Shown here piece by piece: positions 3,055 to 27,000 of a stretch of 64,000 bases of DNA. Made by a program: the position numbers and the translations under genes. The stretch comes from Clostridia bacterium. Its GTDB lineage: Bacteria; Bacillota; Clostridia; Christensenellales; DTU072. The stretch's first letter is position 1. The number at the start of each line of letters is the position of its first letter. The notes under the pieces are model-generated. The model did not search any database, was not told the DNA's origin, and saw only the letters and a program-made list of their open reading frames with translations. The stretch is taken from contig JAFXIQ010000015.1 in NCBI GenBank assembly GCA_017533005.1, forward strand, positions 713 through 64,712. Direction: 5' to 3'.

Positions 3055-3083
3055 TTGACTTAATTTTTAATTAAGCGTATAAT
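3055..3083 (+). promoter_or_regulatory. sigma-A type promoter for the giant-gene operon
   Basis: TTGACT (3055-3060), exact 17-nt spacer, TATAAT (3078-3083). This predicts a 5' leader of about 110 nt before the ATG at 3202. Confidence 0.6.
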
Positions 3084-3201
3084 TGTGCCAAGGAGTGGGT
3101 CGAGATATCGGCCCTTTTGCAATAACAATGCGCGTGAGCGCACAAATAATAACCCAAAATCACAAACCACAAATTCCTTACCCCCAAAATGGAGAAACAC
3201 C

Positions 3202-6200
3202 ATGAAAACCAAGTTTTTCGCAAGGCTACTAATACTACTCATCGTAGCGGGATTATGCCTTACAATGTTCGCTTGTTCACCAAGAGAAAACGACTCGTTG
3301 CCAGACGATTCTATCGATAGAGGTGAGCAAGAAGTAATTGAGGACGAACTCGTCGTCAACAATAAAGTCGACCTTACAACGGCTACTGCCACGATTAAGG
3401 AAACGATTGAGAACTACCATGCAGTCTACCCGGTAATGGAAGACGCAGAGTGGTTTATTCTCGACTTCCAAATCGACTTCTTCCACAACTATTTTTGGTT
3501 GGATGCAGAAGATAAGATGTCCTTGTATCGCGACTACACAATCGTTATCAAGGGTAATCTTCACTTGAAGTCAGAAGACCCGAATAAGCTTCCGAACGAC
3601 GACAGCGTACTTTCTGTAGAAATTATCGACAACGACTACAACTATCTTGCAGCCGGTTTCTATTATTTCGACAAGACCTTGTACGTCAACATCGCAGGAC
3701 AAAAATTCAAGTCAAAAGAAGTTAACATGAGCCAAGTTGGCTTGCTATTATCGAATCTTATTGTGGGGAATAACATCGATATAGTTGGTCTTGTTGGTGG
3801 TTTCTTGAGTGGTAAATTAGGACTCGCAGGGTTAGAGGCTGTCGACGGTCTCTTGCCTATCATTTTGGGAATGTTATTTGATGGTAAAAAATCTTATGTC
3901 ACGGACTACGATTACGACGATGCAACGGGAGAATATCTCGCTCGTGACATAAGCAATACGTTAAAGCTAACTGGAAAAGACGGTTTGTTGAATATGTTTA
4001 CAGAGGACGGCTCTATAGGCGGTTTTATAACCATTAGTTGGGATACGTTCGGTTTGCCTAACTTAGACCCATTGATGTACCAAGTTCTTGGTCTTTCTCT
4101 AGAGAGCATCTTTACGAAAGACTGGTCGGCACTACCTATGGACGCATACTTCGTAGCTAAGACCAAACTTATGGACGTTCCTAAGATTGACGAACAAGGC
4201 GTTGCTTACACCGAAAGAGATTACGTTTTCTCCGGTATCGAAATTACTATCGATTCTACTGCTTACGAAGTAAACGAAACAAAAGCAGACTATGCATCGG
4301 TTGACCCCGAGGACATGGAGGAAGATGAAGTTATCGAAGCAGTTAGCACGCGTATCGGTCTCAACCCCTTGTATTTGAGAACAGACGACGAAAAGATATT
4401 CATTAACTTGAGTGGTATCGCTAACGATACTGCATACGAACAAGGTGGTATAGGTAACCTAGGTCTTACATTAAGCCTTTTCGTAGAAAACGATGACAAC
4501 GGCAAACTAACCATTGGCGATATTATCGGCACTGCATTTGGTCTAGACTTAGGCGCATTAGCAGAAATGCCTATCAATTTCCCGCATCAATCCAAGTACA
4601 ATTTCACGCTAGACGTCAAATTGGCGCTAGACTTCTTCGATAGAACGGCTACACAAGCCGAAATTTCCATTTTATTCGACGGTTACCCCATCATTAGAGT
4701 TTTCCTTGACGGCGCAACGCTTTACTTGAATTTCGAAGGAATTCAAACGATGTCAGGGGCTGTTCTACCTAACCTCAAACTAGTAGGCTTCAGCATAAAC
4801 GACTTGCTAGGTGGCATATTAGGTAGCATTTTACCGTACATAGACCCAGACGCACCGTTGTTACCACCGGCTGCTGAAGAAGATGCAAAAACACTCGCTC
4901 AATACTTGCCTCTCAACGAAGGCGAAGGTGAAGGCGAGGGCGAAGCTCCTCAAGGAAGCCAAATCGACATAATGAAGCTTGTTGGACTAATCGTTGACAA
5001 TATGCATTTGAACGGTGGTCCTCTACCTAATCGTGATTGGAGCCTAGAGAAGTGGATTCTTTCAATCGACCTAGGAAACGATGCGATTAACGAACTTCTT
5101 GGCAACTTTATGGACCTACAAGGCGAGCTAGGACTCAAAGGCATTTCAATTTCACTTGATTTACGCGATATTCTCGACGAAATCCAAGTCAATATCGACC
5201 TTTCTGACACCGTAAGAGCTGGTTTAACTCTAGACGCTTTGACATACTTGAGAGAGCCCCTTTGGAACAACAAAGCAATGGTTGCTACTCAAGAACTCCG
5301 TGATAAATACACGAATATCACCGTTTACAGAGACGAGAGCGGAATGGTAAAAGCTTTCAATCAATACTACAACGTATTCTTGAACGGCGACGTTTCATTC
5401 GGGCTACAAGACACCACGCAAGGTATGGGCATTGGTGGAATCGGTTCTTTGCTTGGTGAAGGACTAGAAAATCTACTCGTTACCATCGGCGTAGACACAA
5501 ACACGGTGGAAAAGGTTATCAATTCAACGATGGCATACAAGCTATCCGCTAATATCGACGTTGTTTCGATGGATAAGCTATCACTTGCTATCACGTTGCA
5601 CGACCCGCTAAACAATACGTCAGAGGGTGAGTATCTCTTCATTTACTACGAAGGCGGTGAAGATACGCTCTACCTAGACCTTAACAAACTCAACAACTTG
5701 AATATCGGTATGTTGGGAACGCTTCCCAAGCTCAAGATAGAAAATCTAGGCTTAAGAGACACGTTGAGAGGTATAAACATTGCCGATATAATGGCAGGTT
5801 TGATAAATACAGACGACCTACAAAACGCATCTCCGTCCGTATTCGGCTTGACTGTTGACGCAACCAACCCCAATGCAGTTGCAGAAACCGTTCACGCATT
5901 CTACAACATGGTTGTTTGCGAAGCATATCTAGCATCACAAGCAGGCAACTGGTTGTTTAACAATCCTCTTGGAGAAGGCGAAGGCACCGAAGGCACTGAA
6001 GGAACGGAAGAAGGCGCCGGCCTAGATATTATGGCGATTATAGGCGTCGCTCTTGACCAAATCGAAATTGACAGGTACAAGGGCACTATTAGCGTTATAG
6101 TTGCTTCCAACGTACTAACTGCGTTGATGGGCATTCTCAATATGCCGTTGACGCTTCCTAGCGTAAACGCAGGCGTTCAAATCAAACTCGGTGGCTTTGA

Positions 6201-9051
6201 CTTTTCACAAGGCTACATAGAAGATGGTATTTTGAGCATTAAGCTCGCGCTACTAGACGACGCCGACAAAGAAATAGAAGCTATCAGCCTTGAACTCGAT
6301 ATTTTGAAAGATCTCGGCGTAAGAATCGGCGAAGACGCAAACCAAATTTCCGGTGGCTTTAAGCGTGAAGACTTCATAGAACTCAACGAGTTTATTGAAA
6401 AGCTTAAGATAGGCGTAAAACTTACTGGATACCTTGATTTGAATTCAGATGAACCTTCTTACGAAAACGATTATATAAACGACATGCTATCGGGACTTTT
6501 AGAAGGTCTTGCAATGGCATTGAAGCTAAATCTTGATTTAGAGAACTTCAGACTCTATATGGGCTTTGAAATCGTTGGCAACATCAACATCAACGATATC
6601 TACTCATCGGAAATCAAGATAGGCGTTTACGACCTAGAAACCAATCCCAGAACGGAAGTTCTAGGCATTTACTTGAAAGACGGCAACTTGTACTTGAATC
6701 TCAGCTACTTCGGTATGCCGAGTATTGGTATTAAGAATGTTAAGAAGCTCATAGAAGAAGATATTGGCGCGCTAACTGGAGCGGTTTCTTCTTCGAAGAA
6801 CCAACAAACGGCGGGCAATCTACCTTCGTTGACAAATATTCAAAATCTTGCTAAATATGCAACTACGGACAACCCCGAGGCTCTAGCTATCGTAGCACTT
6901 ATCAACCCCGAGGCTTTAACCGTAAGCATTTCTGCAGAAGTTCTATCGAAAATTCTAGCTATACTTCTCAAGAGCGAACTCCCCATTGCGCTTAAAGATA
7001 CAATGCTAAGTATCGGTTATGGCGGTGGCAACGCGCTAACCGTTAAGACCGGTGTAGAAGTTCTCAATCTTGAATTGGCTCTAGCAGAAATCAAGATAAC
7101 GCTAGCAGAAAATGAATTGAATACCGTTGAACTACCCAAAGACGTTGAGTTCTTCACGGGCAACGGCGAAGGTTTACCAGAAAACATTTATTTGAATGTT
7201 GGCGGTATGGCATATATCAATAGTGAGCCTGTTGAAGGCACCGATAAGAACATTATCGATTTAACGCCGATTTTGAAAGGAATACTTCCCGCTAACATCG
7301 ACCTTAATATGTTTATCCAAACGTTAGGTATTGTTGACGGAGCGCTATTCTTCAACTTGGAAGGAAGCGTAAACATTGGAGAAATTCTTTCTCTTCTCAA
7401 TGTTGGCTTTGACCTAACCCAAATTACCAAGACGTCACTCAAGTTGAGCTTGTCGACCTATTCGGCAGACGGCGCAATTGACACAAACGGCGAAAGAAAG
7501 AAGACTCCCGTTATGGAAGTATTCTACGTAGGTGGCGACTTGTACATCCACATGGAAACCTTCATTCTTGACGTCGAATACGTTCATATCGAAAAAGCGA
7601 ACGTTATCCTTGCAGATTTAATCGCAGGATTAGGCGGAACTAAAGAAGAAGAAAATTCTAACGCTACAAACGAAGGCGAAGGCGCTACAGAAGGCGAAGT
7701 TGCACCTAGCGAGCCGGACGACATGGACGTTGCGAGCCTATACATTAACCTAGTACTCGCTAACCATGGTATTTCGGTTTCACTCACCAAGTCGTTCCTA
7801 ATTGGACTAATTGGTGCGTTAGGTATGGACCTTTCCAGCTACCTAGACGGATTTGATATCAACGTTGACGTTGGTCTATTCGCTAAACCCTTGTCTGTAA
7901 ACATCGGCATCGGACTAAAGCAAGAAGGCGGCAACGTTATTGAAATGGGCCTCAAGCTAAACGAACTTGACCTTCTTGTCAACCAAGCTCTCGTTATGGA
8001 AGAAGCTGACAAAGAGCTCTACAGAAAAGTAACTACGTTAGACGCTATCGGCATCAAGCTAGGTATGGTTGTTACGCTAGAAGCAGAAGGTGAATATAAA
8101 CACGATCCAGAAACCGGCGTAGAAGGCTATATCCAATCGTTAAGTGGCGTTCTCAAAGAAATCAAGAAAATCCTAGGTGAACAACTTGATTACGACAAAC
8201 TAGTTTGGAAAGAAGAACAAAAGATTCTTCGTGAACTAGATTGGAAAGAAAAGATTTCAGCAGAAAATCTTGAAAAAGAATATCAAGAAGCACTACTTCT
8301 TGACCCAACTCTAGCAGGTAGGGAAGAAGAATGGAAGAGCATTCGAACAACCTTCTATACGGAAGAGTACATAGCATCTGTAACCGACCTTAGACTAGAA
8401 GCTGACTACGAAATTTACGAAGCAACGGCAATAGATTTACGTAAATTGCTAGATATCGGTGCAATCATCGAAATCATGGAAAAGAACGTAGGTGACCTCG
8501 CAAAATTCGGTGGCGAAGTTTATATTGATATTGAAGCTAGAATCAATATTACCGACTTATCCGACTTGAACCTTAGCCTATCCGTAAGCTCAAAGGCTGA
8601 AGAAGAAGCAGGCTACGTAAAAGGCGATATCGTTGCTATTAACGTTGTAAGTACTTGGGATGAAGCAAAAGAAAAATACGATATGGGTATTTACCTAGAC
8701 CTATCGGGTATTTCTAGCGAAAGCCTAAATATCGGCGACAAGATTAAGATTACTAACATCGAAAAATTCCAAGAATACATCGCACAATTCTCACAAGAAG
8801 TCAGTGGTAGCGAAGGTAACGACGCTCTTGCAGTTGCAAGCCCATTGTTCGCTGGAAACAACGGCATAACCATTCAAGACGAAGCTGGCGACGTTGGTAG
8901 CGAAGTTTTGACGGCTGCTGCAGTTATTTTGAGCATTGCTTCTGATGAAGAATACGTTTCTGCTCTAGGCGCACCTCTAGCATTGACGGTTGGCTCGGCA
9001 TGTATTTATGGTTTAATTAAGAGCTTAATCGGTGACTCAACTACTGCATGA
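3202..9051 (+). CDS. giant surface lipoprotein, part 1 (1,949 aa), built from repeats of an unrecognised module of about 330 aa
   Basis: The track ORF starts at 3085, but the -10 box lies at 3078-3083. GGAG at 3191-3194 sits 7 nt before ATG 3202, which opens MKTKFFARLLILLIVAGLCLTMFAC|SP, a signal peptide with a lipobox-type Cys. The body holds six repeats of an LY[LVI][DNH] motif about 1 kb apart, separated by Gly/Glu-rich linkers. It ends at TGA 9049-9051. Confidence 0.8.
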   Translation: MKTKFFARLLILLIVAGLCLTMFACSPRENDSLPDDSIDRGEQEVIEDELVVNNKVDLTTATATIKETIENYHAVYPVMEDAEWFILDFQIDFFHNYFWLDAEDKMSLYRDYTIVIKGNLHLKSEDPNKLPNDDSVLSVEIIDNDYNYLAAGFYYFDKTLYVNIAGQKFKSKEVNMSQVGLLLSNLIVGNNIDIVGLVGGFLSGKLGLAGLEAVDGLLPIILGMLFDGKKSYVTDYDYDDATGEYLARDISNTLKLTGKDGLLNMFTEDGSIGGFITISWDTFGLPNLDPLMYQVLGLSLESIFTKDWSALPMDAYFVAKTKLMDVPKIDEQGVAYTERDYVFSGIEITIDSTAYEVNETKADYASVDPEDMEEDEVIEAVSTRIGLNPLYLRTDDEKIFINLSGIANDTAYEQGGIGNLGLTLSLFVENDDNGKLTIGDIIGTAFGLDLGALAEMPINFPHQSKYNFTLDVKLALDFFDRTATQAEISILFDGYPIIRVFLDGATLYLNFEGIQTMSGAVLPNLKLVGFSINDLLGGILGSILPYIDPDAPLLPPAAEEDAKTLAQYLPLNEGEGEGEGEAPQGSQIDIMKLVGLIVDNMHLNGGPLPNRDWSLEKWILSIDLGNDAINELLGNFMDLQGELGLKGISISLDLRDILDEIQVNIDLSDTVRAGLTLDALTYLREPLWNNKAMVATQELRDKYTNITVYRDESGMVKAFNQYYNVFLNGDVSFGLQDTTQGMGIGGIGSLLGEGLENLLVTIGVDTNTVEKVINSTMAYKLSANIDVVSMDKLSLAITLHDPLNNTSEGEYLFIYYEGGEDTLYLDLNKLNNLNIGMLGTLPKLKIENLGLRDTLRGINIADIMAGLINTDDLQNASPSVFGLTVDATNPNAVAETVHAFYNMVVCEAYLASQAGNWLFNNPLGEGEGTEGTEGTEEGAGLDIMAIIGVALDQIEIDRYKGTISVIVASNVLTALMGILNMPLTLPSVNAGVQIKLGGFDFSQGYIEDGILSIKLALLDDADKEIEAISLELDILKDLGVRIGEDANQISGGFKREDFIELNEFIEKLKIGVKLTGYLDLNSDEPSYENDYINDMLSGLLEGLAMALKLNLDLENFRLYMGFEIVGNININDIYSSEIKIGVYDLETNPRTEVLGIYLKDGNLYLNLSYFGMPSIGIKNVKKLIEEDIGALTGAVSSSKNQQTAGNLPSLTNIQNLAKYATTDNPEALAIVALINPEALTVSISAEVLSKILAILLKSELPIALKDTMLSIGYGGGNALTVKTGVEVLNLELALAEIKITLAENELNTVELPKDVEFFTGNGEGLPENIYLNVGGMAYINSEPVEGTDKNIIDLTPILKGILPANIDLNMFIQTLGIVDGALFFNLEGSVNIGEILSLLNVGFDLTQITKTSLKLSLSTYSADGAIDTNGERKKTPVMEVFYVGGDLYIHMETFILDVEYVHIEKANVILADLIAGLGGTKEEENSNATNEGEGATEGEVAPSEPDDMDVASLYINLVLANHGISVSLTKSFLIGLIGALGMDLSSYLDGFDINVDVGLFAKPLSVNIGIGLKQEGGNVIEMGLKLNELDLLVNQALVMEEADKELYRKVTTLDAIGIKLGMVVTLEAEGEYKHDPETGVEGYIQSLSGVLKEIKKILGEQLDYDKLVWKEEQKILRELDWKEKISAENLEKEYQEALLLDPTLAGREEEWKSIRTTFYTEEYIASVTDLRLEADYEIYEATAIDLRKLLDIGAIIEIMEKNVGDLAKFGGEVYIDIEARINITDLSDLNLSLSVSSKAEEEAGYVKGDIVAINVVSTWDEAKEKYDMGIYLDLSGISSESLNIGDKIKITNIEKFQEYIAQFSQEVSGSEGNDALAVASPLFAGNNGITIQDEAGDVGSEVLTAAAVILSIASDEEYVSALGAPLALTVGSACIYGLIKSLIGDSTTA
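9049..9051 (+). other. single in-frame TGA separating the two giant ORFs
   Basis: 3085 and 9094 are both in frame 1. Codons 9052-9093 (TDLGTTLTDEQKLL) contain no further stop. The TGA is followed by A. Confidence 0.9.
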
Positions 9052-9093
9052 ACCGACCTAGGCACGACGCTAACCGATGAACAAAAGCTTCTA

Positions 9094-12000
9094 TTGACAG
9101 AAGAACAAATGAAGTTCTTGCAAGACAGTATCGTTCTTGATGAAAACGGTAACGAGCTATCCCCCAAAACCGTTGGTCAATACGATGTTGCTAAATTCTT
9201 CGCAGGCCACGACGCACACTTGTCAATCAAGATTGCTGCTACCGGTATTGAATGCGATTACGGCGATGGCACGAGAGAAGCTTTCTTGCTAATCAACCTA
9301 ACAATAGAAAATCTACTACAATTCCAACTCGAAATAGGCGATATCAACGTTTCTATTAACCCCTCGAAGACTGCATACGATAAGGTTGCTCAAGACGAAT
9401 CGTTCTATCACTTAGATCCTGAGTATATGGAAGAGCATAGCATTAGAATCGGTTTCTCCGGAGAAACTACGTTCAATGCAGAAGATACTAAGTTCGAGGG
9501 TACGGGAGATAAGGATAATACTGCAATCGATGTGTATTACCTACTAAATACACTCCTAACGGATATGGACGTTGGCTTCAGCGCACTTATCCAAAACTTC
9601 GATTACGACAAGAAGAAACTAGTTGTTTCTCTTGATTTAGTATTGCCTATCGCGCATATCCTACCTATATTTGCAGGTGGCGATATCCTAGATAGCATTA
9701 TGCCTGTTCTCGTTCACGGCAAGTTGAATCTCACGTTGAACGCTATTACCAGAACGAACGAAGAAGAAGTAGACAACATTATGAGCTTGTACTACGAGAA
9801 CGGCCACGCTTATATTGACGGTTCCGTTATCGGTGTTAACAAGTTAAGAATCGAGAACGCACTTCTTGCACTACTCGGACTATTTGATATAGATATTAGT
9901 GAACATTATCCTAATTTAGATGAAGACCAAGACGGTTTCTACGGAGATGACGACGATACCAACAATGGTAGCGAATCTAACGGCGACGCACCTAACAATG
10001 CTTCTGCGCCTAACTATGCTCCAGAGAACGATGAAGACGAACCCACCGGTGACGACCTTCTACCTTACTTCCACCTAATGATGGGTAACAGCACGGGCGT
10101 TATTGCTAACGTTATGGGTTCACTTGCTTTCGCTATGCTTTCAGCTGTTAAGTTGAACACAGAAGGCGCAGACCTAGGCAATCTAGTCAAAGAAACCGTT
10201 AACGAAGCGCTTTATCTACAATTAGGTATTGGCGCGCGCCTACCTACGATAAGCGACGTTTGGGATGATAAGAACGGCGACGGCGTTGTAGAAGAAGGTG
10301 AAGTAAGTGATGCCGACATATTCTCAATCGCAATTGGCGCTGCTAACTACGACGTAGGTATAGCATTCCGTTCGGTAAGATTCGGTTTGTCAGACCTTGA
10401 TATTAGACCGGAAGCTTTCGTTCCCGACGAATATGCTCACGCTCTTGACTTGCGTAGCATTTACTTGAACTTCACGTTGAATTTCGACGTAGACGGGGAC
10501 AACGGCGCATCGTTCAACCTTGATGAAACGGTAGACGGACTACTCGGATCACTAGCTGGTGACGGTGGTCTTATGGATACTATTTCAGGACTAGGTCTTG
10601 CTCCTGTTATCAAGCTACTATCAACGGTTAGCTCAAACTACGTTCTAGAATTCGTTGGCAATATCAACCTAACGGAATTCATAGACAACGGCTCTCTATT
10701 CAACACCAACGCAACGATTTACTTGCGTGATAGAAATAGCCCTCTATACGAAAAAGATGGAGACGGCAACTATATAACTGATGCTAACGGAAATAAAATC
10801 TTCAAAGAATATGAAGAAGTTATGTCCATCATTTACTATGACCAAGCTCTATATTTGAATGCAGAGTGCTTCAACATTCAAGCGGTTAGAATAGATAACG
10901 TTTACGACTTTGTGATGGAACTTATCGCAACGTATGCGCCTGCTACTCCAGAAGAAGGTGGAGAAGGCGAAACTCCTGCAAACGCAGCACCTGGATTTGC
11001 TGGCTACGAAGGATTCGACCCATTTGCAACGTTACGTAACGCTGCTGGCGCAGGCACCAAAGAAATAGCTTACATTAACTTGAAGCTTTGCCCACAAGGC
11101 CTTGTTGCTTCCGTTGGTCTTGCTGCAATATTCGGCGTTCTAACCTTAATCGGTGGCGAAGCTATGTACGATTACTATGGATACGTTCAACCTATGGGTG
11201 ACGTAACCGTAGATTTGACACTACTCGGCGACGACGAAATCTTCGGATTAGGTCTTAAGTTTGAAGACTACGCTTATGAAGAAGGCGAACGCGTAAATAT
11301 TGGTACCGAAGAAAATCCCAAATATCAAAAGAGTGGTAGAGATATAAGCATCGCATTCAGTATTAGTAACGAATTCGAGCTAGACTTCTCGTACTCACGT
11401 CCTGATATGATTATCCCCGCTCCGGAATATGCTTACGTTGGTGGAGAAAACGTTGAATACGTTGTACTAGACCGTACGCAACCTGTTATAGCAATAGAAA
11501 CCTCCTTGTTTATTGATATTCAAGCAGGTGAAATTACAATGTCTAACGGCACGGGTTACGATGGTATTGAGCTTAACAAAGAGCCTCTACAAACACTTCT
11601 AGGTGGACTTATTGATAAGTTTATCTTGAGCATACTTCTTGAAATCACAGGTGAAAACGCAGCTTGCTTCGAAGTTAACATAAGAGCAAACGTTAACGTC
11701 CGTAACATTAAGGGTATAGAAGCTCAAATAGCTGTATACAAAGTTGACGGCAACCGTGACGACAAGGATTATAAAGAAAGAACCATAATTATGGCCAACT
11801 TGCACGATAGTAACCTTTACGTTGACCTAACGAATTTGAACGGACCTAAGTTCTGTGTCATTGAAGTTATGGAAACACTACTAGGGGAAAAGGAATTCGA
11901 CGGCGAATTAGAAGACGGCGAAACCGAAGAAGGTGCGAACAATGCAGTTGGCGCTCCAAACAGCGCTAGCGGTAGTGGTAGCGGTTCAAATCTTGATATC

Positions 12001-15000
12001 AATATAGATTTAGGAAGAACGATGATTCTCGATAACATCGCAACGCACGGTCTCGCTTTATACGTTACCAAGACGGCTATCGACTCACTATTAGGTATGT
12101 TCAATATGGGAGAGCTAGAAATCTTCAGCGAATTCCTATTGAGAATTTACCTAGCTCCCAAACTAAATACTTTCGAATTCGGTATTGATATCGAAATCGG
12201 CGCAGATTCAACAACTATTGACGGACAATCTTACACAAGCAAGATTATCGACTTAGGCCTCGGTCTAGACGGTTTACGCGTAAACTTCGAAGCTTTCGAT
12301 GAAACCGAACTATTAAGACCGCAATCTTCCGACTACTTGACAGCTCACGATATCAACACTATTCGTGCAGACCTAAGACTACAACTACAAGTAGACGCAG
12401 AAAATGGTACTATTGAACTTCACGACCTATACGAAGGTATATTGAAAGAAAACGGCCTCATAGAAGGTATTATCGGTGACGGTAGCGTTGTTGACTCGCT
12501 ATTCTCTGACGATAGTCCTTTGACAACGGCTCTACCTCAGCTTCTAGCTCTAGGCGATTTAGGTGACACGTTAACCATTGATATTACGGCTGTACTCAAC
12601 ATCAGAGAAGGTATTGCCGGTATCTTCCGTTCGCTACAACTTCAAATTAGGATATATAATAATGATAAGAGATTAAACCTTGTTATCGACCTTTCAGACG
12701 ACCCAACGCAAGATGGATGGAGAAACATCTACCTTGACTTGTCTTCAGTAGGTCTAGGCAAAGTTTACATCTACGATATGGCGTATATCCTAGAATTCCT
12801 AGGCATCGACATTAACAGCCTACTTGGCAGTGGCGACGTTATTCCAGAAGAAGTTTCTCCCGAAGCAGAAGCATCGTTTAACGAGATGTTCCCCGCTCTA
12901 GGCGAACTACTTAATGCAGAAAACGATATCGACAAGTCTGTTGGTATAGTAAAAATCTTGCTCGGCGAAATGGACGGTTTCTTAATTACCGTAACGTTCG
13001 AGATGATTTGCGCTGTATTGACGCTCTTGAACATTGATATCGACTTGAACGAGCTAATTGGTACCGTTATTAGACCTAGCGCAAGCGTAGGTATGACACC
13101 GGATAGCGAATACGAAATCGGTATTCACCTTGACACTGGTGCAGAAACCAGAAAAGAATACTTGTACGATGAAAACGGAGATGCTATTTACGACCCGATT
13201 ACGGGCGAACATAAGACGCAAACCGTTCCTAACGAAGCAGGCATCGACGCAATTATAAGAATTTGTGGACAAGAAATCAAGGCTGACGTATTCAAAGAAA
13301 GCTTTAACCAATCACCAAACGGAATGGTAAGCTCAATTAAGCCCTTAATGAGTGACGAAAGCAAGGCTTCTTACACAAGATTTGACGAAATGGCTCTCAA
13401 TATCGAGCTTAACATTTCTGGACAAATCGATATGGTTGACGGTAAGTTCGTTCTAGGCGACGTTGTAGAAATGGTTCTCGGCGTTCTTAATATGACGGCA
13501 GAAGACCTAACGCTTGCACTCGTTACAACAGGTGGTGACGAGACGTTACTCGGCGAAATCGGTATTAAGCTAAGTCTAAACTTGAAACAACTATTGTCAA
13601 CGGATGAAGCTGAAATCGCAAAGTCTATTTGTGGACAAATTAGAATAGGTTATAAAGTTATAGATAACCTTACTGGCGAAGATTATCATTCACAAGATAT
13701 TATTCACGCATACATCGTAGATAACATTATCTATGCAGGTATCGAGTTATTCGACACCAACCTTGACATTAGACTTCCCGACATCAACCCAACAGGATTG
13801 ATTAGAGATATCTTTTACGACATCTTCGACGTAAGAGACGTTGAAGACGACACGGTAACGGGTGACGGAAGCGCTGATGAAGAAGAAAGTGGCGCAAGCG
13901 CTCCACAAAATATGTATAACCCCATCACCGATATGCTAGAAGACCACAAGGATAAAGTTGGTGAAAAACTTGAACCAATGATATTCCTTAACTCTTCGGG
14001 CTTCGCAATCATGGTTACTAACAAATTGCTAGTTGCTTTGACTGACGCAGTTCTCAATATCCTAGGTGGTGTTATCGGCACGCAAGACGGCGAAGAACTT
14101 CTTCTTGACAAGGAAGTAGTTGAACAATTCCTAGACGAAATTATGTCTAGCGCAAACCTCGGTTTGTTCTTCGACAAAGAGAAAGACGGCAACTTCAGCT
14201 TGAAGTTGAACCTATCGAAAGACTCTGGCGTTATTAACATCGGTGGCGAAGGCGCTAACGACGGTAAATATCAAGCTTTAGGCTACAGCATTACGCTATC
14301 ACTTCTACACGACACAGTTGCAGTCATCAGCACGGATACTTTCGATGAATACTATAGGTATTTGACGGAAGACGATGAAATGATGAAGTATTATGGTACT
14401 TGCTTCGATGCACGTGACGTTGAATGGCGTATTAATGCAGGCTTAGATATTACGATTTCAACAGAATTTACAGAATACATTTTGAACTGGTCGTCACTGT
14501 TCGCTAACGAGTTAGACGAAAACGGTAACGCAATCGGTGCTGCATTCTATCTACAAGCTCTCGAAAACATGAAGGGCGACGTTACTATGCGCTTGAAGTT
14601 CGATATCAAGCTAACCGATATCGACAAATGGGGCATAAACGCTATGATTCAATTCATTAGTTTGAATAGCGACGGCACCGTTTCAGAAGAATTCTTCGCG
14701 CTATACATTCTAGGTAGCTTGAATGAAACAGAAGAAAATTACGCTAACGATGGACTAAAGATTTATCTAACGATGAGTGCACTACGCACCTTCAACGAAG
14801 ATAACGGCATCGACGGCGTAGACGGTATCCTTATTAATAGTGATACGTTCGTAAACTTCTTGAACTTGAACTTGCAAGGAATCCTAGACGGAGTAGGTGA
14901 ATACGTTCAAAACAACGTTGTTGACGGTATTCTAGAAACGCTATGGGGACTAATCGGTTCATTTGCAGGTGGAGATGATAGCGAAAATAACGACTCTGAA

Positions 15001-18000
15001 CAAGAAGTTCAATCTCCCGACAATGCACCCGAAGGCGAAGGCGCAGAGGGCGAAGGTACGGAAACTCCCGACGACCCCTATACACCTGAAGAGGAAGAAA
15101 CCGAAGAAGCAAGCGCTTGGTATTTGAACTTACTTGACAGTATCCAATTTAGTAAAGGTGCTATTTCTATCGTTGTTGCAAAGACGGCTCTAGAAACTAT
15201 CTTGCAAGAACTCTTCAACTTCCCGTTCGAAGAAGGTATCGGTGGATTAAAAGTCAACCTTAATAATACTGATAACTATATTGAATTAGAACTAGGTCTT
15301 GACAGACAAGAAGAAGTTGACTTGTCAGAAATGACATTCAAAGACCTTGAATATTCAATCGCAGAAAAGGCTGTTGTTAAGTCAATCCACAGCACTATCG
15401 AAAGCTACGAAAAATTAACGCTAGACGATAGCGCGCTAGCTAACCCATTCCTAACAGGCGTTATCACCAACAACACCGAATTAGGACAAGCACAAAAGGG
15501 TTACTTCGGCGAAAAAGAACTTTCAATCTTAGCAGGAACAGGAACGACTGATGTTTACTACCTACTATACGACGTAGACGAATACTTCGTAGCACAAGCA
15601 GACGACACTCTAGAAACAAAAGTCGGCAGAGCTAACACGATGCTCAGCGATATCACAAACTACATTCGAGCTAAACAACATGGTGGTGAATCGCTATTCA
15701 TTCTAGAAGGATCAAGCGGTAACTATTATTCAAGAAAACTAAAGACCAATATCGCAATGAAGGTCTTGACTGACGATACGGTAGGTGCAAAAGCTTACGT
15801 AATGGTTGCAGTTGCAATCAATAGCGAAGTAGAATCTGCTCCTATCAACGTTCAAAACGTCACTATTGAGAGCTTCGATGATAGAGAAGCTACCATCAAA
15901 AACGTAGAAGAAACTCTAGCAGCTATTAGATATCTTGATAGTCAATTTATCGTAGGACTAACGGCAAACGATAAGCCGATTGCTCCTAACAGCGCATTCC
16001 TAATTACACAAGATGGATACAACGATAAAGACTTCGCGCTAGAGAATTCTGCACAAAGAAATATTTACTATCTAGTATTCGACCCGACTGATTACTACGC
16101 AATCACCGGCGATAGCATCGAGGAAAAACTACTTTCTAGCCAAATGAACTCTATTGAACTTATCAACATCTTGGTTGAAAGCTTCAAAGGAAGAAGTTTC
16201 GAATGGACGGAAAGTCCTCGTGCTGGAAACGATATTATCGGCACACAAAACCTTGTTTATTCAGCTACGCACTTGTCTGTCGCAATCAGAAGCGTTCTAG
16301 ATACCGAAGCAGGTTACTACAAGGTTATCGTTGGTGTTGTTTCTAACGCAAGTATGTATAACGTCGCATTGAGAATCGGTAACATCGATATCGGTCTTGG
16401 TGGCGATAACATCTTCGCGAATACACCTATGGATGCAACAATCCACGGCGATAAATATCACGAATATCTCGATAATAACTTCAAACAACTTAACGAATTC
16501 AAGTGGGAATTCGGTGTAAACCTAGAATTCAAGATTGACGACACCGTTGGTGGCTTCTTCGATATGAGTAGCTTAATCACAACCGTTATGGGACTTATCG
16601 GTGGCGATGAAACAGAAGGCATACTTGCTGCTCTCGGTCAACTAAATCTAGCATTACAACCCGCTGAAGATATCGACATTGCAATCGGTATTCACTTGAG
16701 AGTATTCATTGACTTTGGCGACATCACTCCTTTGAGATTCCAACTCGCAATTACGCATAACCATCGTAACCTAATCCAATTAACGTACGAAGGTAGAATG
16801 ATTCAAAATGCTCAAGGCGAATTGGTAGAAAGAAGCGTTATTTACGCAGACCTTTCTGGTCTAGGCTTCCCCGCAATGAAGCTAGAAGGTCTACAAGTTG
16901 GCAAGCTCGTTAAAGACATACTTGCCGACATCAATGCAGACTCACTTTTAGGTGGAAGCACCGGCGGTGGCGAAAGCACGGAAGAAGGTGGCGACGCAGG
17001 TCAAGCTATCAACAACGGTGCTGTTAGCATTTACAATGCAGCAACCAAGTACATCGACAGAGTTGACCTTAAAGACTATGCTTGGGATAACAGACTTCTA
17101 CTTATGACAATGTCATACGACGAAGTAACCATCGCAGTTACGGGCGCTCTCGTTTACAGCTTGCTCGGCGGTATTGCTATTGACGGACAATTCAACGTCA
17201 TCAAGATTCCTATGTTCAGAAACTTAGTTCTAGGATATTCTGAAAAGGATAACATTTCTGGTCTAGAAATTCGCTTGACTGACGATACGCCTTACGAAGA
17301 AGCATTCAGAATAGGCTTCCACGTCCGTAAGGGTTACTATCTATTCGGTACAGACGTAGAATCTACGATTACTCCTTATACTGCAGATATTAAGGAGGAA
17401 GACTTCGAAGACATTTCCGTTATCGACAAGGTCGGTTTGACTCTCGGTATGGAACTACGTATTCGTACGAAAGACGGAGAAGAAAAGAGCCCGCAATTAG
17501 AAGCTATTGAAGCTCTAATCGAAAACCTTGTCAGCATGCCGGAAGGTAGCGTTGTTCTTGACCCACAAGACAGCGTAATGGTATTCGGTTTAGAGTTGTC
17601 ACTCTACACGAGTCTAAAAGACTTCTCAGAAACGACCTTAAGACTCGCACTAACGTTTGCAGAAGAAGATATTCTCGCAATCTACTACATGGGCGACGAA
17701 AATAGAGTATATGCCGACCTAACCGGACTAGGATTCTTCCAAACCACCTTGACAGGTGTAGACCTACTAGGTATCTTGACAGGTCTTGTAGGTGGACTGC
17801 TCGGAACGGAAGGCATTCAAGTTACCGAACTAATTAACGGTGTATTCGACATTATTGACGATACGGTAGACGAAGAGCTAGAAGAGGGTATCCAAAACGC
17901 CACTGACGCTCAAAATGCCGCTGTTGATTTGATAACTTCGACAAACGCTCCGCTAATCCGTATCTTGATGTCTAACGACGAGTTAATCATCAATCCTAGC

Positions 18001-21000
18001 ATCTCAGTAGTTCAACTACTACTAGGTGATTCGATGAAACTACCTAATATTTCTGATATTAGACTTTCAACGAACATCAGCTACGGTTTGAACAATTTGG
18101 CATTCCGTATCAAACTTGACCCATATGGAAACTACGTAAACGCAAACGTTTCTGAAAATATGTTCAAGATTGCTATCGGCAATAGCGCAGAAGAACTCAA
18201 ACTCAAGAAGGTTAAAGACCCAGGTAGTTACAGTGGTGTAGTTGGTATCACTCTCGGCTTAAACGACGAGGGCGGACTATACACAGGTTTCGATATCGGC
18301 ACGTTGGTATCTTCACTTGTTGACACTCTCAAGTTTGACGACTTCGCAATTTATCTAGAAAAACGTAACGACTACTACTTCATGCGTAACTTGAAGTACG
18401 GTGGAACGGGTACGCTCTCTCTAGCTAACTTTGCATTGTCGCCCAACCTATCCACAGGTCCCACCTACTTCTCAGACGGCACGTCGTCAATTTACGACAA
18501 GTCGTTTGACACGGCTGATTCTAAGGGCTTCACGCTAACCGACATTCTCGCATTGTTCGGTCGTGGTCCTATAGAAATCTTCGGACTAAACGTTACTGAT
18601 ATGATTGGTCTTGGTACAGGATATCAAGCAACGTACTTCAATAACGCGTACAGAAGAGTTCGTTTGTCGCTCAATAAGACGGCAGATAACGGCCTAGAAA
18701 TCAATATTAAACAATTAACGCAAGTTTCAGGTTCTTACTCCGACATGGTTGACCAAGAAGACTGGAAACCACAAGAAGTAACAGCCTTTACGAAAGAAAA
18801 CGTTCTACACATATCACTACAAACCATTCTTGTTATCGACCTAACCGGACTTATCGATACGATAGTTGAGTTTATCATCGACAAAGCTCTCGGTGCTGCA
18901 ATCGAAGCTATTATAACTGCGGCTTCGGGTGGTGCGCTTGGTGCATTCGCAGGTCCTATCAAGACGGCTATTACGAGCTTGTTGAACGCATTAGTTTCCG
19001 ATGCTATAGCTTCTGCTCTTGCAAACCTAATCGCAGATTCTACAGGTTACGGCAACCCGCTAGAAATTGGTAGAATTCTAGACGACGTTCTAGGTAAAGG
19101 CGCAGGCGGTATTCCGATTACCAGCTTGTACATGCCTACGCTTCTTGCTGGTCTAACCGGTGGTACGGCAGAATACGACGACCAATACGGTAGCTTGTAT
19201 GGAACGATTACAGGCCCTGGCCCTGATGGTAGAGAAGTTCCCGTTGCAGGCGCAACCGTAAGATTGAACGGTGACCTATATACGACAACGACTAACGCAG
19301 ACGGCTTCTACAGTTTCATCAACGTTCCTGTTGGCAATTACAGTATATCTATTATTGCAAGCAGTCTAGGATACAACGATAAGCCACAAATTGGCGAAGC
19401 AGGTATCAGTGCAACCGTTCGTTCATACTCGGGCTTCGGCGCAACGGAAGCTAACTTCATGTTGAACCTATATCAAACACCGTTCATCGGTGAAGACGTA
19501 AATATTTCCGGTAAATTCTCAACGCAAGTTGCCGGCAATAGCGTTTCGGGCGTAGACATTTACTTCCAAACCATCAATTCAGCTGGCGTAACGACTGGTT
19601 GGAACAAGATTGCTACTACGGACGCAAGTGGTAACTATACCGCTGTCGTAAGCAACGTTTACGCGAACTACCACGGATTGCAAGCAAGAAGAGGTGGATA
19701 CACCGTAGCTACTGCTAGCGTTACGATGAACCCGAATAGCAAGAACTACACTGTAAACCTAGTCGAAAAGGTACCTTCCGTTCCGACGAGTGGTAGCATC
19801 AGTGGTAGACTAGTAACTTACAACTTCCGTAAGATGCTAGAAGGTAAAGCTACAGAAGTTTATGCAAATTACGCATCTAATGGTGGAGAAGAATTCCCGA
19901 CGAACGCGTTGACGGCTATTAACAACGCGCTCAACCCCACCTTCTTCAATACATTGGTATCAAGAGGCGGTACGTTCACTGGCGTAACGGTTAAAGAAGG
20001 CGTTATTGCATTGACCTATGAGTTCGAAGACGATATGCCCGATTCAAAATACGAAAACGGCAATATCGATAAAGCTGTCAACTCATGGTTCATGCATCTC
20101 AATAGCAGTGGTTTCAGAATGGAATCACTATTGAGCAACACAAGCTACCATGGTGAAAGCGAAACGCATAAAGCTAACATCGACTTTAGAGCAATTCGTT
20201 CACAAAATACGATTATCGTTGCAATTAGTGCAGCAGACTTCATTGCTGTAACTTCAGGCGTTGAGTTGTGGATAGAAATCCAAAATTCAAACGGCACGGT
20301 AAGAACGATTAGAAACACCGACTCTTATGACGGTAAACAAGTAAGCCAAGTTAAGTACAGCGGCACGGCAGTTTACGTAGAAGGTGGAGGAAAGGCAGAA
20401 GACCCAATTTACACCAATTACTACGAAAACACGCCTAGAGATTATCTATCCGTAGGAAGAAAGGATAACAAGCAAACCGACTTCGAGGCTAAACAAGTCT
20501 TGAATTCCGACGGTAGATTCACTCTAGACGCTATGGCTTTCAACACGAACTACGTATTGAAAGTTCGTTCTGCGACTTACAACAATAGAGACCTAACGGA
20601 TAACGTTGTCCTATTGAACAGCAGTAACTTAAGAGCAGACCTAGGCGAAATAGTTCTAACCAAGCGTGCACCTCACTGGTCGGAAACCAAAGTTGCAGGT
20701 TCAATGCTACAAGGTTTGAGATTAAGACTAGGTGCTGACAAGCTAGACGAAAACAGCGAAGGCATCGCAGACGTATTGAACCCCGGTTATACCGCAGACG
20801 GTATTCCTATGACGATGTACTCATGGCTAGCAAGCATGACGGATGAAACCTTGAATGCTCTAGCAGGTTGGGGAACGGGAACCGTTCAAAACGTTGTAGG
20901 CGCTGTTATCGATACTTTCGTAAGCAACTCTATCCTTAACGCAATACTAGGTGCAGGCGTAAACGCAGGTATCGGCGCACTAGGTGGACTAATTCCTTCT

Positions 21001-24000
21001 GCGAACAGTCAATCACCATTCCTAGACGCTGTTGGCAAGCCCATCTTCGTTCCATGGGATAACTACGTAACAGGTTTCGAAAGCGCTGCAGAAGACCGCA
21101 ACGATGCTATAACCTATATTGAAGCTTGGGTATCTTCAGACATGATAAACGGTATATTCATGATGGTTAACAACATGATTCTACCTCTTATCGGTTATAA
21201 CCCAATCACACCTAACCAACAATATACGGCAGCAGACCTCTGCGCAATACCTGAAGGCACTAACGACGCTGATAAGAACCTACTAATGTACAACGGTATC
21301 TTCGATGAAAGCGACGATGAAAAGATTTACGACTACGTATACGCAAACGAAGGCGAATACGCATCTGTAATGAATGCATTCGGTGCTAGAATCGCCGGTG
21401 GCGTTTTGAGCACGGTCGTTAACTTGTTACCAGCGATAATAGGTCAAGATTGGATTAGTAAAATATTCGGCCTTGTACAAATGGTTCTTTACTCAATCGA
21501 AGCAGTAAGAGACATTCTCGACCAAGTAACAAGACTAATTTCACATATCTTGCCGTTAACGTTGGCGTACAACATGTATGCAGAAAAAGACCTTGAAAAC
21601 AGCCCGTTAACACAACAATCCGTTGTTGAAACCGTTGCTCGTGATAGTAACCGTCAAGCTATTACGAAAGACAACTTTGCAACGTCCGGACTCGTTGGTA
21701 CGCAAGTTGCAACGCAAGAAGATTTGAGAAATAGACAAATCGCTACAAACGTTGGCGATTTGGTATCGCACAGCGGAGCTTTGGCAAAAGACGTCAACTT
21801 AGTTGGTTACAACTATACGGGAATTACGACTTCTATCACACCCGTCACCAAGGCAACCGAGCCTAAACTAGACGACGACGGCGATATGCTAGAAGGCTAC
21901 TATCGTGATTTAGACTTCCACGATATGTCCGTCTATGCAAAGGTAGTCTTGAACTCTAACGTAACTACGCTCCTAGACAGAATAGTTCTATTCATCAATG
22001 GTGCTAGCTACGAAAACCACGATAAAGGCAAGATTAACGATGACTCCAAGTACTATCCGAACGGCACGCTACTTCGTGCAGATACCGTATTGTATGACGA
22101 AGAAGGACAACCTCTACCCGAGTACAAGGCTGTACACGAAATGGTTCAAAAGTGGATTGCAACCAACATCGTTAACTCTTACCTAGTTATCAACGATTAT
22201 CGTTACGAAACCAATGAAGGTGGCGTAACGACAAGAAGACTTGTTGGTACAACGTACGTACGTGACGTATTCGGTCACTTCGATGATATCGACTACGAAT
22301 ATGGTGATATTGCCTTCGTAACAGTCAATAACGAAGATGGTGAATTCCAATACTATGAATATCGCGAACTAACGCTAGCAGAAAAAGAAGTTGTTGACAT
22401 CATTTCTGCAAAGAACGACTGGTTCCTAGAAGTTGATATCAACAATACCGGCGTTGGTCTACGCGCAGTAACTTCACTTGGTGAACTATTCTACGCAGAA
22501 CCTAACGGCACGTCTCCGATGACTAGGACCTATTTGAACCCACCGGAAACCATTATCTTCCACGACCCATACAATATGCTCGACTTCACGGCATTCGGTG
22601 GAACGTGGGCAAATGAAGGCGGACACGGTGGCATTCGTCACAACGTCAACGAAGATGGTACTTATACGGTAACGGATATCACCAAGATTCTACCGAACCG
22701 TTGCCAAGCAACGTTCAAAGATGGTTCTTCGGACGACAGTACTGGCGTAACGGTTTACTGGGACTTCAGTGCAATCAACTGGAATACCCAAGCAGAAGAC
22801 GGTGCAGCAGGCCAAATCAAGGGCTACGTCGCTAATATGACGTTGTTCCAAGAAAGCGATGGCAAGACCGTTTCCAAGATTAACACAATCGTAGAAAAGG
22901 GCGTTGTGGTTGATCCCAACTCCACGCTACACATCGAATACGATGAAGCTCTAGGCAGATACGTTGAAGACGAAGACAACAACGAGAAGATTTTCGACCT
23001 ACCGGAAATCGACCCAATGAACTTCGACCTTGATGCTTACGTAAGCGCTCTACCCACACAATTTGCTTACGCAGCAAAGATGGAATACGTTATCGACGGC
23101 GTAAAACAAGTCTTCAAGTATTCAGACGGAACCGTTCAAGAATACGTTTTCAAACGTTACGTATTCAACAAGCTATCTTGGGACTTCTCGAAGACGGAAA
23201 TCAGTTACAAGGGCGGAACTGCTTACGCAGAACTAACCTACTGGTACGAACCTTCGACAAACAAAGACGGCGCAGTTAAGGGCGAAGCTTCCAAGAGAGT
23301 AACCGTAAAAGTTCCTGTCAGAGTTAAGAGTTATGAAGCGGTTAAGTTGAATTCAGTTTCTTCAAGCATCGGCTTGAACCTCTTCTACGAAGCTAACAAT
23401 ACTATGGTTGTAGCAATTTCTGCTTACAATGAAATAGATAGATTCGCAAACGTTACCAACGGTGCAAGCTTCAATATGGGCGACCACGTTGGCGCAAACA
23501 ACGAATATCTAAATCAACTATTGAACGGATACGGCTTCAACGTAAGCGGTAGCGAAACCATAGACGACGCATACTATAACAGCGAAGATAGTATCGTTTA
23601 CCTAATATACAACGACGTAACGGAAGCTAAATTCCTACAATACGTTGCAGAACTCAACAACAAACACGGCTACGAAATAACCGTAGCTACAGACGAAGGA
23701 TTGGCAGCAAGAGCGACGGCTTATAACGCTTCAATAGAAAATGCTACTGCGACTGTTGACCTAGATAAAGGTAACGCACTAGACAAGAGCAAAATTGACG
23801 AAGAGCTCGCTAAATTCGGTCAATTCACCAAGTATAACGGCACAGGTTCACTTGCAGGCCTATACAGAAACGATGAAATCGGCGTACTTTATGTTGAATA
23901 CACAGGCGTAAATGCAGCTAACTACTTGAGCTACGTTGAAACTCTTAATACAAGACACGCAATGAGCGAAAAGGTTAACCGCTTGTATGCAATCAACAGT

Positions 24001-27000
24001 ATGAGCAACGTTGAGTTCGTATATCGTCACACAAGCAAGGACGGCACCGTAAACACCTTCCTATCGAAGGACGAAACGATGATAGTTGCACTTGTAACGA
24101 GCCTAGTAGGCGATAGAATCGTTTACTACTACAACGGCGCTAACAAGGGTGGCTTCACCAAGGACTTCGACGGTGACACGTTAGTATTCAACCCGTTAGA
24201 TAACATCGACGTAAAGAGCGTTGTTTCTCAACTAAAGACTATTAGCTTGAGCTACAATACTTACGATGCAGACGGCAACGTTATTGTTGACGCAACGGGG
24301 GCTCCCGTTCTAGGTACCATCAAGAGATGGAAGATAACGGGAATTGAATATTCTTCACTAGACGAATACGACCCCAAAGAAATTACCGAACAAAAGTTCC
24401 CCGTAGTTATTACGGTTCAAGACGTTCTAGGTAATAAACAAAACATCACCATTTACGTTCAAGTTCTTGATAGACAAATCAAGGCTCATAACCTTGACAC
24501 GTTAATCCCGCAAGAAGTAAGAACAATTAATCCGTTCTCTGGCGCAGACTTCGCTCTACCGAGCGCATTCGAAGTAGATTACGGTTATGCGTTATTGACC
24601 TTGAAAGAAGGCAAAGATTTCGTATGGGAATACGACGTAGAAGAGAAGAAGAGCTTCAACTATCAAGGAACTACTGCTAATAGCTGGGAATACGTAATCA
24701 AAGCTGTTGTTGGCGAAGAAGGATACGAACAATACATTCCTATCACTTACACAATCAACAGAAGAATTCCTACCGGTGTTAAAGAAATAGCAATTTATCC
24801 GTACGCTTCTTATACTAGCGAAGACGAAGTATACAAGGGAGCAACCTTGAACAGCGAACAAGATGCTGAATTCTTCACCGGAAGCAGTAACGTAAACGAA
24901 CAAACCAAACTTTACTACCAAGTAACCAATGAAACCTTTGCTCGTGGCAACGGAACGACGTCTTGGGATTTCGTAACGGTTGACGAAGAAAAGGCAATCG
25001 TAGTTGACGGAATTAAGTACTACGAAAGCGTTGAATTCAAGAACGTATCTTACGACGGTGAAATCTATCACGTCAACGTTCTCTTCATAGACGAAATCTT
25101 CGGCAAACAAATCGTTAAGAACGTTCGTGTTAAACTACTCAAGACGACCGTAAGCTCGTTGAATATACCTGCTATGGAAATCAGCCCGTATTACTCAGAT
25201 GAAGATATCAACAAGATACTCTTCGAGAACGTAGGCAACATTTCTGCTAACGTATACGGCGTAGCTAACACCAAGCTATGGAACAAAGATGACGTAAGTG
25301 GCGCTAAAGCTGCATTCGATATCATTGGCTGGAGCTACGTAGACAAAAACGGCCTATATCCCGACGGCAGAGACGTAACGATTAACGTTGTAATCGGCAA
25401 CAAGGGTTATAAGGCAAACGACGTAGAAACACAAATCTGGTCGCAAGAATTACCATTCACGTTCACGAAAGCAGGTGGATATCTCAGCGACAAGACTGTT
25501 GCAGAAATAACGCCTATTACACAACCTGGTAGCTACAAGTTGTATAAGGATAACGCAGGCAAGTACGTCTTCGAAATCCAAGACCCATACACCTTCGAAC
25601 TACCCACAATGTTGAACGTGGTATTTAAAGACGGCGATAGCTACGATGTTCCGGTAGCTTACGATATGGGCGCAAATAAGGATAAGTTCTACACGTATGA
25701 ACATTCAACGCTAGAAGGCGCTATCATCGTCGGCACAACGATGATAAACAACAAAAACACAGTAGAAGTAACTTATATGAACGTCAATCCGAGAAAGGTT
25801 CTTGAGAACGGCATTAAGTACTTCTACGATGAAGCTCATACCAACGAATTTAGCGATAGCGACAAGACCTTCTACGCACTAGACGGCGTTGAACTACCCA
25901 AGTATGCAACCGTTGATTTGTACAACCAAGCTAATAGTAAAAACGAAACCTTGGAATTCGACGTTGAATGGACGTCGGTAACTACTTACAGCGCTAACAA
26001 GAGTGACTACGTAGAAGGCAAGAAAGAGCTAACGGCTACGGCAAAGATGGGCAATTCAGTCTTCGGTTACATTATCAACGAAGTTAAATTAACGGTAATT
26101 GAAGAACACGTATCCAATTACGTATTGAATAGCGATAGAGCTTATATCAATCCTTACTACGACGTCAAAGACCAAATTGTAGAAGCATTAGGCCTAATCG
26201 ATAACGGCGACGGCACCGTCGGAATCCTAGTAGATACCGTTGATGCAAAAGGCAATGCTTTAAGAAACGGCGTAAAAGTCGACGTTGCACTACCACAAAT
26301 CCCGATGGGATATCAAACGACTTCAAGCTATAACGTTGAACTCGGACTAGGTAGAACGGTTGACTTCGGTGGAGTAACGGCTATCGTAGACGATAAGAAT
26401 AACAAGTTAGGTACGTCAATAGAAGTTAGAGAATACGCTCCATTCATGGCAGTCGTTGAAGCTCGTGTAGCAATCGGTATCGAAACTTGGTACGGCGAAA
26501 ACGTTCTAACAGGCAGTGTTTATGAACAAATCGACTTCGCATCACTAGATACCAGCACCGTAATCGCAGTTGGTAGAGTAGATAGCGATCGCGACCTATT
26601 CGGTGGACAAGTTGGATACAAAGCAATAACTAGAGATTTCTTGGCAGAGGAAAAACTAGCTAACGTATGGCCGGAAGGCATCAATATTCTTGACGAAAGC
26701 CTAGAAGCTCTCAAGCTAAACGGCAGAATTATCGCAGTATATCAACATAACGATATTTACTACGTATGGTATCAAGGCGCATTGAATATCAAAGACGCTA
26801 AGTACCGTCAAGGAATAGCAGATGCAGGTTATCAATTAACCGAAACGGCTAACGGATATCATTCTTACAACAATGGTATTGCTATTGACGTAGCAAGCTA
26901 CGACGAAGGACTAACGATTCTATTCGAAAACGGTGCTTACGAAGATATAGACGTTGAATGGGATGTTTCTTCGTTGAGATACACCTTCTTGGGAGGCAAC

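Follow-up and report, generated by a model that had tools for sequence, protein, structure and literature searches.

The closest precedent for the locus described here is the ebh gene of Staphylococcus aureus, a 33-kb open reading frame (ORF) that is intact in most strains but is split by a frameshift into ebhA and ebhB in strains Mu50 and N315 (PMC3868527). A comparable arrangement occurs in a stretch of 64,000 nucleotides (nt) from a Clostridia bacterium of the Christensenellales (assembly GCA_017533005.1, contig JAFXIQ010000015.1), referred to below as the window, in which a giant surface-protein gene is cut by one small lesion into two adjacent annotated ORFs, ORF1 and ORF2. Whereas the lesion in ebh is a frameshift, here it is an in-frame change of GGA to TGA, and the proteins are unrelated; Ebh is not known to be a lipoprotein. 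Comparison with orthologous loci confirms that ORF1 and ORF2 make up one predicted giant surface-lipoprotein gene, positionally conserved in Christensenellales-type Clostridia. Its interruption is probably a real, very recent and strain-private nonsense mutation, and not a conserved recoding signal. All coordinates are those of the window, and the features of the giant gene lie on its forward (+) strand.

Other in-frame stops offer useful comparisons. In phage Qbeta, where read-through from the coat protein into A1 is programmed, the stop has been conserved and the phage depends on the extended product. The window resembles this system in having an in-frame UGA between a short product and a same-frame extension, but its stop is absent from conspecific assemblies and from all orthologues. 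UGA also leaks without any programming, as in Bacillus subtilis, and this leakage is affected by an A directly after the stop. In an Escherichia coli reporter library, UGA is the leakiest stop and mostly yields Trp, with rates that reach a few per cent at hot spots (PMC11126739). The UGA of the window is likewise followed by A, and Trp would be the expected residue; however, basal read-through by tRNA-Trp is an error process with rates taken from other organisms, and there is no sign of enhancement here. In-frame stop polymorphisms in bacterial genes have been described by Belinky et al. (2021; PMC7918605), with a focus on stops common to at least two species. These share with the present case a single nonsense substitution in an otherwise intact, selected gene, on a within-species scale and with flanks nearly identical to those of the sense allele. 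The stop in the window, in contrast, is private to one assembly and is without even that hint of persistence. It is a new instance of a known, ordinary phenomenon, with no evidence for a new recoding mechanism.

Translation of the 27.7-kb frame from ATG 3202 to TAG 30942 (3202..30942) yields 9,246 codons, one of which, codon 1950, is an internal stop; the full product would have a mass of ∼1,016 kDa. This sole interruption is the TGA at 9049-9051, with A as the next base. The frame is composed of 1,949 amino acids (aa), the stop, 14 sense codons (9052..9093) and 7,282 aa. Mechanical ORF calling yields 3085..9051 and 9094..30942, and ORF1 and ORF2 share a frame, as 3085, 3202 and 9094 all equal 1 modulo 3. 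Both pieces are present in the protein collection: ORF1, the N-terminal 1,949 codons (3202..9048; 212 kDa), as MBR6750919.1 (P0018, locus tag IKM01_01535) and ORF2, the mechanical 7,282 codons (9094..30942), as MBR6750920.1, the latter named ‘carboxypeptidase regulatory-like domain-containing protein’ in GenBank. Both coding sequences (CDSs) derive from a 65,116-nt contig of an NCBI metagenome-assembled genome (MAG), ‘Clostridia bacterium’. A preliminary description of the window, made from its letters without database searches, had noted two same-frame ORFs parted by this TGA and 14 sense codons, and retranslation agrees with it throughout. The bare pattern would arise by chance with a probability of ∼0.17 (1/3 for a shared frame and ∼0.5 for 14 stop-free codons), so the weight of the single-gene case rests on homology comparisons.

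Two single-ORF proteins with N-terminal lipoprotein signals, P0002 (7,826 aa) and P0004 (7,809 aa), are collinear in blastp with the fused ORF1+ORF2 over the whole length, and one high-scoring segment pair (q1737-4050) spans codon 1950. The gene order of the window (ROK, PIG-L, giant gene, M6/RCC1/Big protein, Big_3, GH20, P-type ATPase) is kept on the contigs that encode them, L005 and L006, where the M6/RCC1/Big protein has ∼2,046 aa; GH20 lies between Big_3 and the ATPase in L006 and is absent from L005. This shared order marks both as positional orthologues of the giant gene. The neighbouring PIG-L gene, used as bait, recovered 32 loci, of which the 22 with enough downstream DNA (GTDB) were used; they carry the names Candidatus (Ca.) Stercoripulliclostridium, Christensenellaceae/Christensenella and Clostridia/Clostridiales, with one ‘Firmicutes bacterium’ and one labelled Ruminococcus bicirculans. 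In every one of the 22, a single ORF of 2,908-3,262 codons runs from just after PIG-L through the junction to the end of the fetched DNA, which amounts to 70,031 codons without a break.

The alignment is continuous across the stop itself. In the closest species, LIKSLIGDSTTA[*]TDLG..LTEEQMKFLQDSIV aligns to LVQTLIGNLLTP[K]PQLS..LSPEQIRYLREGII and similar sequences, and the 14 codons at 9052-9093 align with the continuous ORF of L020, L027, L018, L021 and L022. What looks like a spacer, along with the beginning of ORF2, is therefore normal coding sequence. Residues aligned to the stop in these five are K/P/K/D/E. Altogether the stop is absent from 24 orthologous loci (the 22 GTDB loci, L005 and L006, the last also recovered as L007), and the more distant relatives L002, L003 and L004 also read through its site. 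The collinear single-ORF orthologues, the synteny and the 22 unbroken loci thus uphold the earlier proposal of one lipoprotein gene of about 9,246 codons. No orthologue carries a stop here, let alone one followed by a proper ribosome-binding site and start, as would be expected of two separate genes. The relatives came from a module-profile search, the PIG-L bait and the listing of the ORF2 90% cluster; in word-index homology searches, two queries across the junction (801 and 339 aa) recovered none of them, though they exist, and scans of genome and metagenome contigs with junction peptides found no relative either.

The ancestral codon can be read from assemblies of the same species, since the ORF2 90% cluster led to three ENA scaffolds of that species. 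L041 (ERZ28653803, scaffold_17310) is ∼99.7% identical to the window in nucleotides outside scaffold gaps, with 23 substitutions over window 4338-13236, and L042 (ERZ28593421, scaffold_523), which stems from a different sample, shows 99.13% identity across 28.4 kb. At the position of the TGA both read ...ACTACTGCA GGA ACCGACC..., encoding Gly, and the upstream gene piece of L042, called as 3,509 aa, runs across the junction. The 37-mer around window 9049 is GGTGACTCAACTACTGCA[T/G]GAACCGACCTAGGCACGA, with T in the window. The differences in L041 that come closest to the stop are at 8346, ∼700 nt away, and at 10760, and 9052-9093 is identical, while L042 has one difference at 9066, 17 nt downstream of 9049 (GGCACAACG vs GGCACGACG in the window). 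With the GGA of the two conspecific assemblies taken as ancestral, the TGA (9049..9051) is by this comparison a derived, assembly-private G>T change at 9049. GGA had been one of three sense codons (TGG, CGA or GGA) put forward for this position in orthologues.

A three-way comparison over 18.4 kb places the change among 24 window-private codon changes (∼0.13%). As 4.1% of all point substitutions possible in the gene create a stop and the target spans 27.7 kb, one nonsense change among a few dozen unfiltered ones is nothing out of the ordinary. In the ORF2 part, 117 codons differ synonymously and 55 non-synonymously between the window and L042, with not one stop among them, which indicates purifying selection on the full-length protein within the species. 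The window-private differences are clustered, at 4945-4956, at 5599-5609 (three in 11 nt) and at 7927-7930 (two in 4 nt); small recombination patches, a strain-mixture consensus or relaxed selection are possible causes. Scaffold gaps of 10 N (L041 1101-1110, 2784-2793 and 7380-7389; L042 near window 13692) suffice on their own to cut the same-species scaffolds into several called ‘genes’. Since these pieces come from gaps and not from lesions, fragment counts overstate how often the gene is broken.

Breaks of the giant gene are also found in more distant relatives. L003 has a frameshift near window-protein aa 1700 (L003 5737-5794) and L004 is broken twice, near aa 400 and near aa 4,200 (L004 ∼511-604 and 11151-11859); both come from ENA assemblies, where such breaks may be mutations or assembly errors. 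A distant member (L001; JGI 3300010049, Ga0123356_10000091) is called as 1,846 + 6,720 aa on account of a -1 frame change (L001 9940-10003) at GGC TTA AAG ATT, which reads LGLGLK in both frames and lies ∼80 residues downstream of the position of the stop. The A_AAG within it is known as a motif for single-tRNA slippage, but this frame change more likely stems from a simple indel mutation or an error. The breaks known in relatives therefore appear to fall at scattered sites. A conserved split site, as L001 might suggest, was considered and rejected: the residue differs, the lesion is a frame change, and with about five known breaks there is a ∼9% chance that one falls within +/-80 aa of the stop of the window.

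Several observations weigh against a real and recent nonsense mutation. The source is a MAG, and a base error and a real mutation look alike in its consensus. G>T is, moreover, a typical artefact of oxidative damage. ORF2 is intact over 7,282 codons, which would be equally expected if it were still translated and selected; the youth of the lesion accounts for this intactness, given ∼13 private changes downstream and ∼0.5 further stops expected. The UGA-A context is compatible with leakiness, and the break in L001 lies only ∼80 aa beyond the stop of the window. Finally, the window-private changes are richer in non-synonymous ones (15:9 vs 45:99 in the other two lineages; Fisher p = 0.005), as would fit relaxed selection or errors. 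This excess does not discriminate, however, because it is equally high upstream of the stop and is not significant against the other short branch (p = 0.20). Private non-synonymous to synonymous ratios were likewise uninformative as a sign of relaxed selection downstream of the stop, with small numbers on both sides (7:6 downstream vs 7:3 upstream).

Part of this evidence is shared by a sequencing or assembly artefact, in which the organism would have GGA, the T at 9049 would be a wrong consensus base and the gene would be intact; such a base might stem, for example, from low coverage, from a minor variant where strains are mixed or from G>T damage of the 8-oxoguanine (8-oxoG) type. The G in two other assemblies of the species, the transversion itself, the origin from a MAG on a 65-kb contig and a non-synonymous excess on both sides of the stop, as consensus noise would give, are all in its favour. 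Nevertheless, the assembly is not error-ridden, as each of the 21 further ORFs that were checked is intact and no frameshift interrupts the 27.7-kb gene. Substitution errors are rare in short-read consensus sequences. Real nonsense polymorphisms, on the other hand, are common in bacteria (PMC7918605). An artefact is on balance unlikely, though far from negligible.

The place of the stop within the protein also bears on its interpretation. Residues 1-3,186 consist of ∼10 very divergent modules (14-21% identity) of 280-380 aa each, an array (3202..12759) delimited by motif positions, module alignment and a leave-one-out hidden Markov model (HMM), and crossed by the stop. Each module has a terminal ‘LY[LV]xL’ motif, an acidic linker and an amphipathic hydrophobic element, with the motif at fused aa 161, 508, 824, 1164, 1448, 1831, 2204, 2551, 2873 and 3177. 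The motifs at 8689 and 9808, on either side of the stop, lie 1,119 nt apart, so that the module period is normal here, as had been claimed. The stop falls in module 7 (8722..9840; fused aa 1841-2213), which is defined by a held-out HMM and orthologue alignments and has about one third of its length in ORF1 and two thirds in ORF2. An HMM from which module 7 had been left out aligns its positions 103-312 of 314 with fused aa 2006-2211, on the downstream side of the stop, and the held-out score of 14.3 bits is among the better leave-one-out scores.

The stop site (9040-9200, fused aa 1945-2000) is a hypervariable loop and the insertion hot spot of module 7. Here P0002-P0004 have ∼50 residues fewer than the window protein, and the Stercoripulliclostridium group (L008-L016, L032, L034) has ∼150-200 extra. 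The ∼330-aa ‘LYLxL’ modules are an undescribed family: among 1.84 billion representatives, their profile matches 17 proteins elsewhere at E<=1e-3. An AlphaFold2 model of one module, with eight paralogous modules as input, was unusable (mean predicted local distance difference test 39.4). The only confident Pfam domain of the protein is a CarboxypepD_reg-like domain at 19198..19380 (PF13620, E = 1.2e-9, 38.9 bits, cut-off 32.3), in agreement with the preliminary description, whose ‘Ig-like arrays’ fared less well, being represented by one Big_4 match below the Pfam cut-off (E = 0.0013).

A selected, programmed or regulatory read-through of the UGA would set the ratio of an anchored 212-kDa isoform to a rare 1-MDa isoform and so act as an expression dimmer for a costly protein. 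The setting is not unfavourable, as a hypervariable loop that accepts insertions would probably accommodate a Trp, ORF2 is intact, and UGA, here followed by A, leaks more than the other stops and is decoded as Trp (PMC11126739); many in-frame stops have in addition been argued not to be pseudogenes (Belinky et al.; PMC7918605). The UGA-A context is, however, the only feature at the stop that favours read-through. Folding of 9040-9130 gives a minimum free energy of -12.7 kcal/mol vs -11.5 +/- 2.8 kcal/mol in shuffles (z = -0.44), and reveals neither a stimulatory structure downstream nor a hairpin resembling a selenocysteine insertion sequence (SECIS). The stop is missing from the two conspecific assemblies, all 24 orthologous loci and the three distant relatives, no second example occurs at the same site, and a change this young accounts for the intactness of ORF2. 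Selected read-through is accordingly very improbable. Basal, unprogrammed leakage of the UGA is plausible, by analogy with other bacteria, but trivial. Among the three explanations offered earlier, a recent nonsense mutation and a sequencing error remain favoured, while programmed read-through with short and long isoforms is contradicted by a stop that is not conserved within the species and by the lack of downstream structure.

Decoding of the UGA as an amino acid by design, through selenocysteine or a reassigned code (UGA = Trp or Gly), has next to no probability and is effectively refuted. Its sole support is that a UGA lies in frame; there is no SECIS-like hairpin, and the aligned position holds Gly in the conspecifics and K/P/K/D/E in the closest species, with no Cys or selenocysteine. 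Among the 22 ORFs checked in the window, 4 others end in TGA, one of them in an ATGA stop/start overlap at 48873-48876, and TGA occurs once in 9,246 codons despite 66 Trp and 800 Gly. The genetic code is standard. Neighbours in the window (SpoIIE, AddAB, GH20, GH95, class I fumarase and P-type ATPase) indicate a Firmicutes/Clostridia chromosome. No tRNA genes are present in the window, and a 2026 paper on tRNA-Trp with a 4-bp anticodon stem does not mention the lineage. Phase variation by repeat slippage was also rejected, as no homopolymer or short tandem repeat was seen around 9049 when the sequence was read by eye, no repeat tool having been run.

Start signals are found ahead of ORF1 and are lacking ahead of ORF2. 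The true start is ATG 3202 and not the mechanical GTG 3085. A sigma-70-type promoter (3055..3083; TTGACT, 17 nt, TATAAT; 11/12 consensus matches) follows the terminator of the upstream PIG-L gene (2850-2883), and the ribosome-binding site GGAG at 3191-3194 precedes the start codon at 3202-3204 (3191..3204; duplex with the anti-Shine-Dalgarno (anti-SD) sequence -6.4 kcal/mol). A start at GTG 3085 would lengthen the protein by 39 spurious codons; this GTG comes right after the -10 box (3078-3083), close to where transcription should begin, and has no ribosome-binding site. The N-terminus from ATG 3202 aligns with those of the orthologues and opens with a lipoprotein signal peptide running to the lipobox Cys, MKTKFFARLLILLIVAGLCLTMFAC then SPR (3202..3276). 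The signature LFAC then SPR recurs in 16 of the 22 orthologues, and a 17th (L024) has LIAC then SYR; since the pattern match halted at an earlier Cys in the remaining five, the signature count is a lower bound of at least 17. By the pattern of a lipobox with an invariant Cys, the product is predicted to be a lipoprotein and a substrate of signal peptidase II.

ORF2 begins quite differently. Its candidate starts have anti-SD duplex energies of -0.7 kcal/mol (TTG 9094) and -2.2 kcal/mol (ATG 9109), compared with -4 to -9.3 kcal/mol for most other genes of the window, and its N-terminus has no hydrophobic segment and no signal peptide. The absence of a ribosome-binding site and of a signal peptide, both remarked on in the preliminary description, is thereby borne out. 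The Met of ATG 9109 aligns with I/I/I/N/N in the closest-species orthologues, so the start is not conserved, and a scan of the junction region found no terminator and only one promoter-like match, at chance level. These features bear on a functional two-gene arrangement, in which ORF1 would be a stand-alone lipoprotein and ORF2 would be translated by termination-reinitiation at TTG 9094 or ATG 9109. The short stop-to-start distance (42-57 nt) on one transcript would suit reinitiation, GenBank does annotate two CDSs, and the distant relative L001 is also called as two proteins. Against this, no SD sequence precedes a candidate start that is itself not conserved, the cut falls inside module 7 and the conspecifics are unsplit, and the split in L001 is a frame change at a different residue. 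ORF2 would further lack a signal peptide, although the orthologous sequence is predicted to be exported as part of a lipoprotein. Two functional genes are thus hard to credit.

If the nonsense mutation is real, as favoured here, one G>T transversion at 9049 would have turned GGA into TGA in the lineage or read population behind the assembly. Most ribosomes starting at ATG 3202 would stop at UGA 9049 and yield a 1,949-aa, 212-kDa lipoprotein cut short within module 7. A few, amounting to ∼0.1 to a few per cent if E. coli is a guide, may insert Trp at UGA-A and complete the 1,016-kDa protein, which would contain the junction peptide ...SLIGDSTTAWTDLGTTLTDEQK. Any product re-initiated on ORF2 would be without a signal and hence presumably cytoplasmic. 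The allele would then be a (leaky) loss-of-function variant in a gene that offers mutation a very large target. It is improbable that the T allele is not just real but kept at appreciable frequency, as a reversible ‘off/dim’ switch for a 1-MDa surface lipoprotein. Were this so, leakage of UGA-A through tRNA-Trp would give little full-length protein and one-step reversion to GGA or TGG would restore expression, which would amount to nonsense-based population heterogeneity of a costly giant surface protein that is probably exposed to host or phage.

The giant gene belongs to a neighbourhood conserved in Christensenellales / Ca. Stercoripulliclostridium (window 629-42066; L005, L006, L007; L008-L035), which comprises ROK, a PIG-L deacetylase, the giant lipoprotein of 7,800-9,250 aa, an M6-peptidase/RCC1/Big protein of ∼2,050 aa, a Big_3 protein of 241 aa, GH20 (except in L005) and a P-type ATPase. 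In the window the M6-peptidase/RCC1/Big protein is ORF3 (31052-37213), whose 2,053 aa combine an M6 peptidase with RCC1 repeats and Big_2/Big_3. Its listed, putative start at ATG 31052 has a very weak Shine-Dalgarno sequence (-2.2 kcal/mol), and the last 20 nt of ORF3 are shared with the next ORF (37194).

For annotation, the correct model of the locus is a single 9,246-codon gene with an internal stop, to be recorded as pseudo or with Gly at codon 1950. MBR6750920.1, as the signal-less C-terminal four fifths of a lipoprotein, misleads counts of giant proteins, predictions of localisation and the building of families. The lesion itself adds one more very large surface-protein gene caught with a fresh nonsense allele. 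More interesting is the gene family that it interrupts, which encodes a lipoprotein of 0.85-1.0 MDa in gut Christensenellales, with about ten fast-evolving ∼330-aa modules that lie outside any Pfam model.

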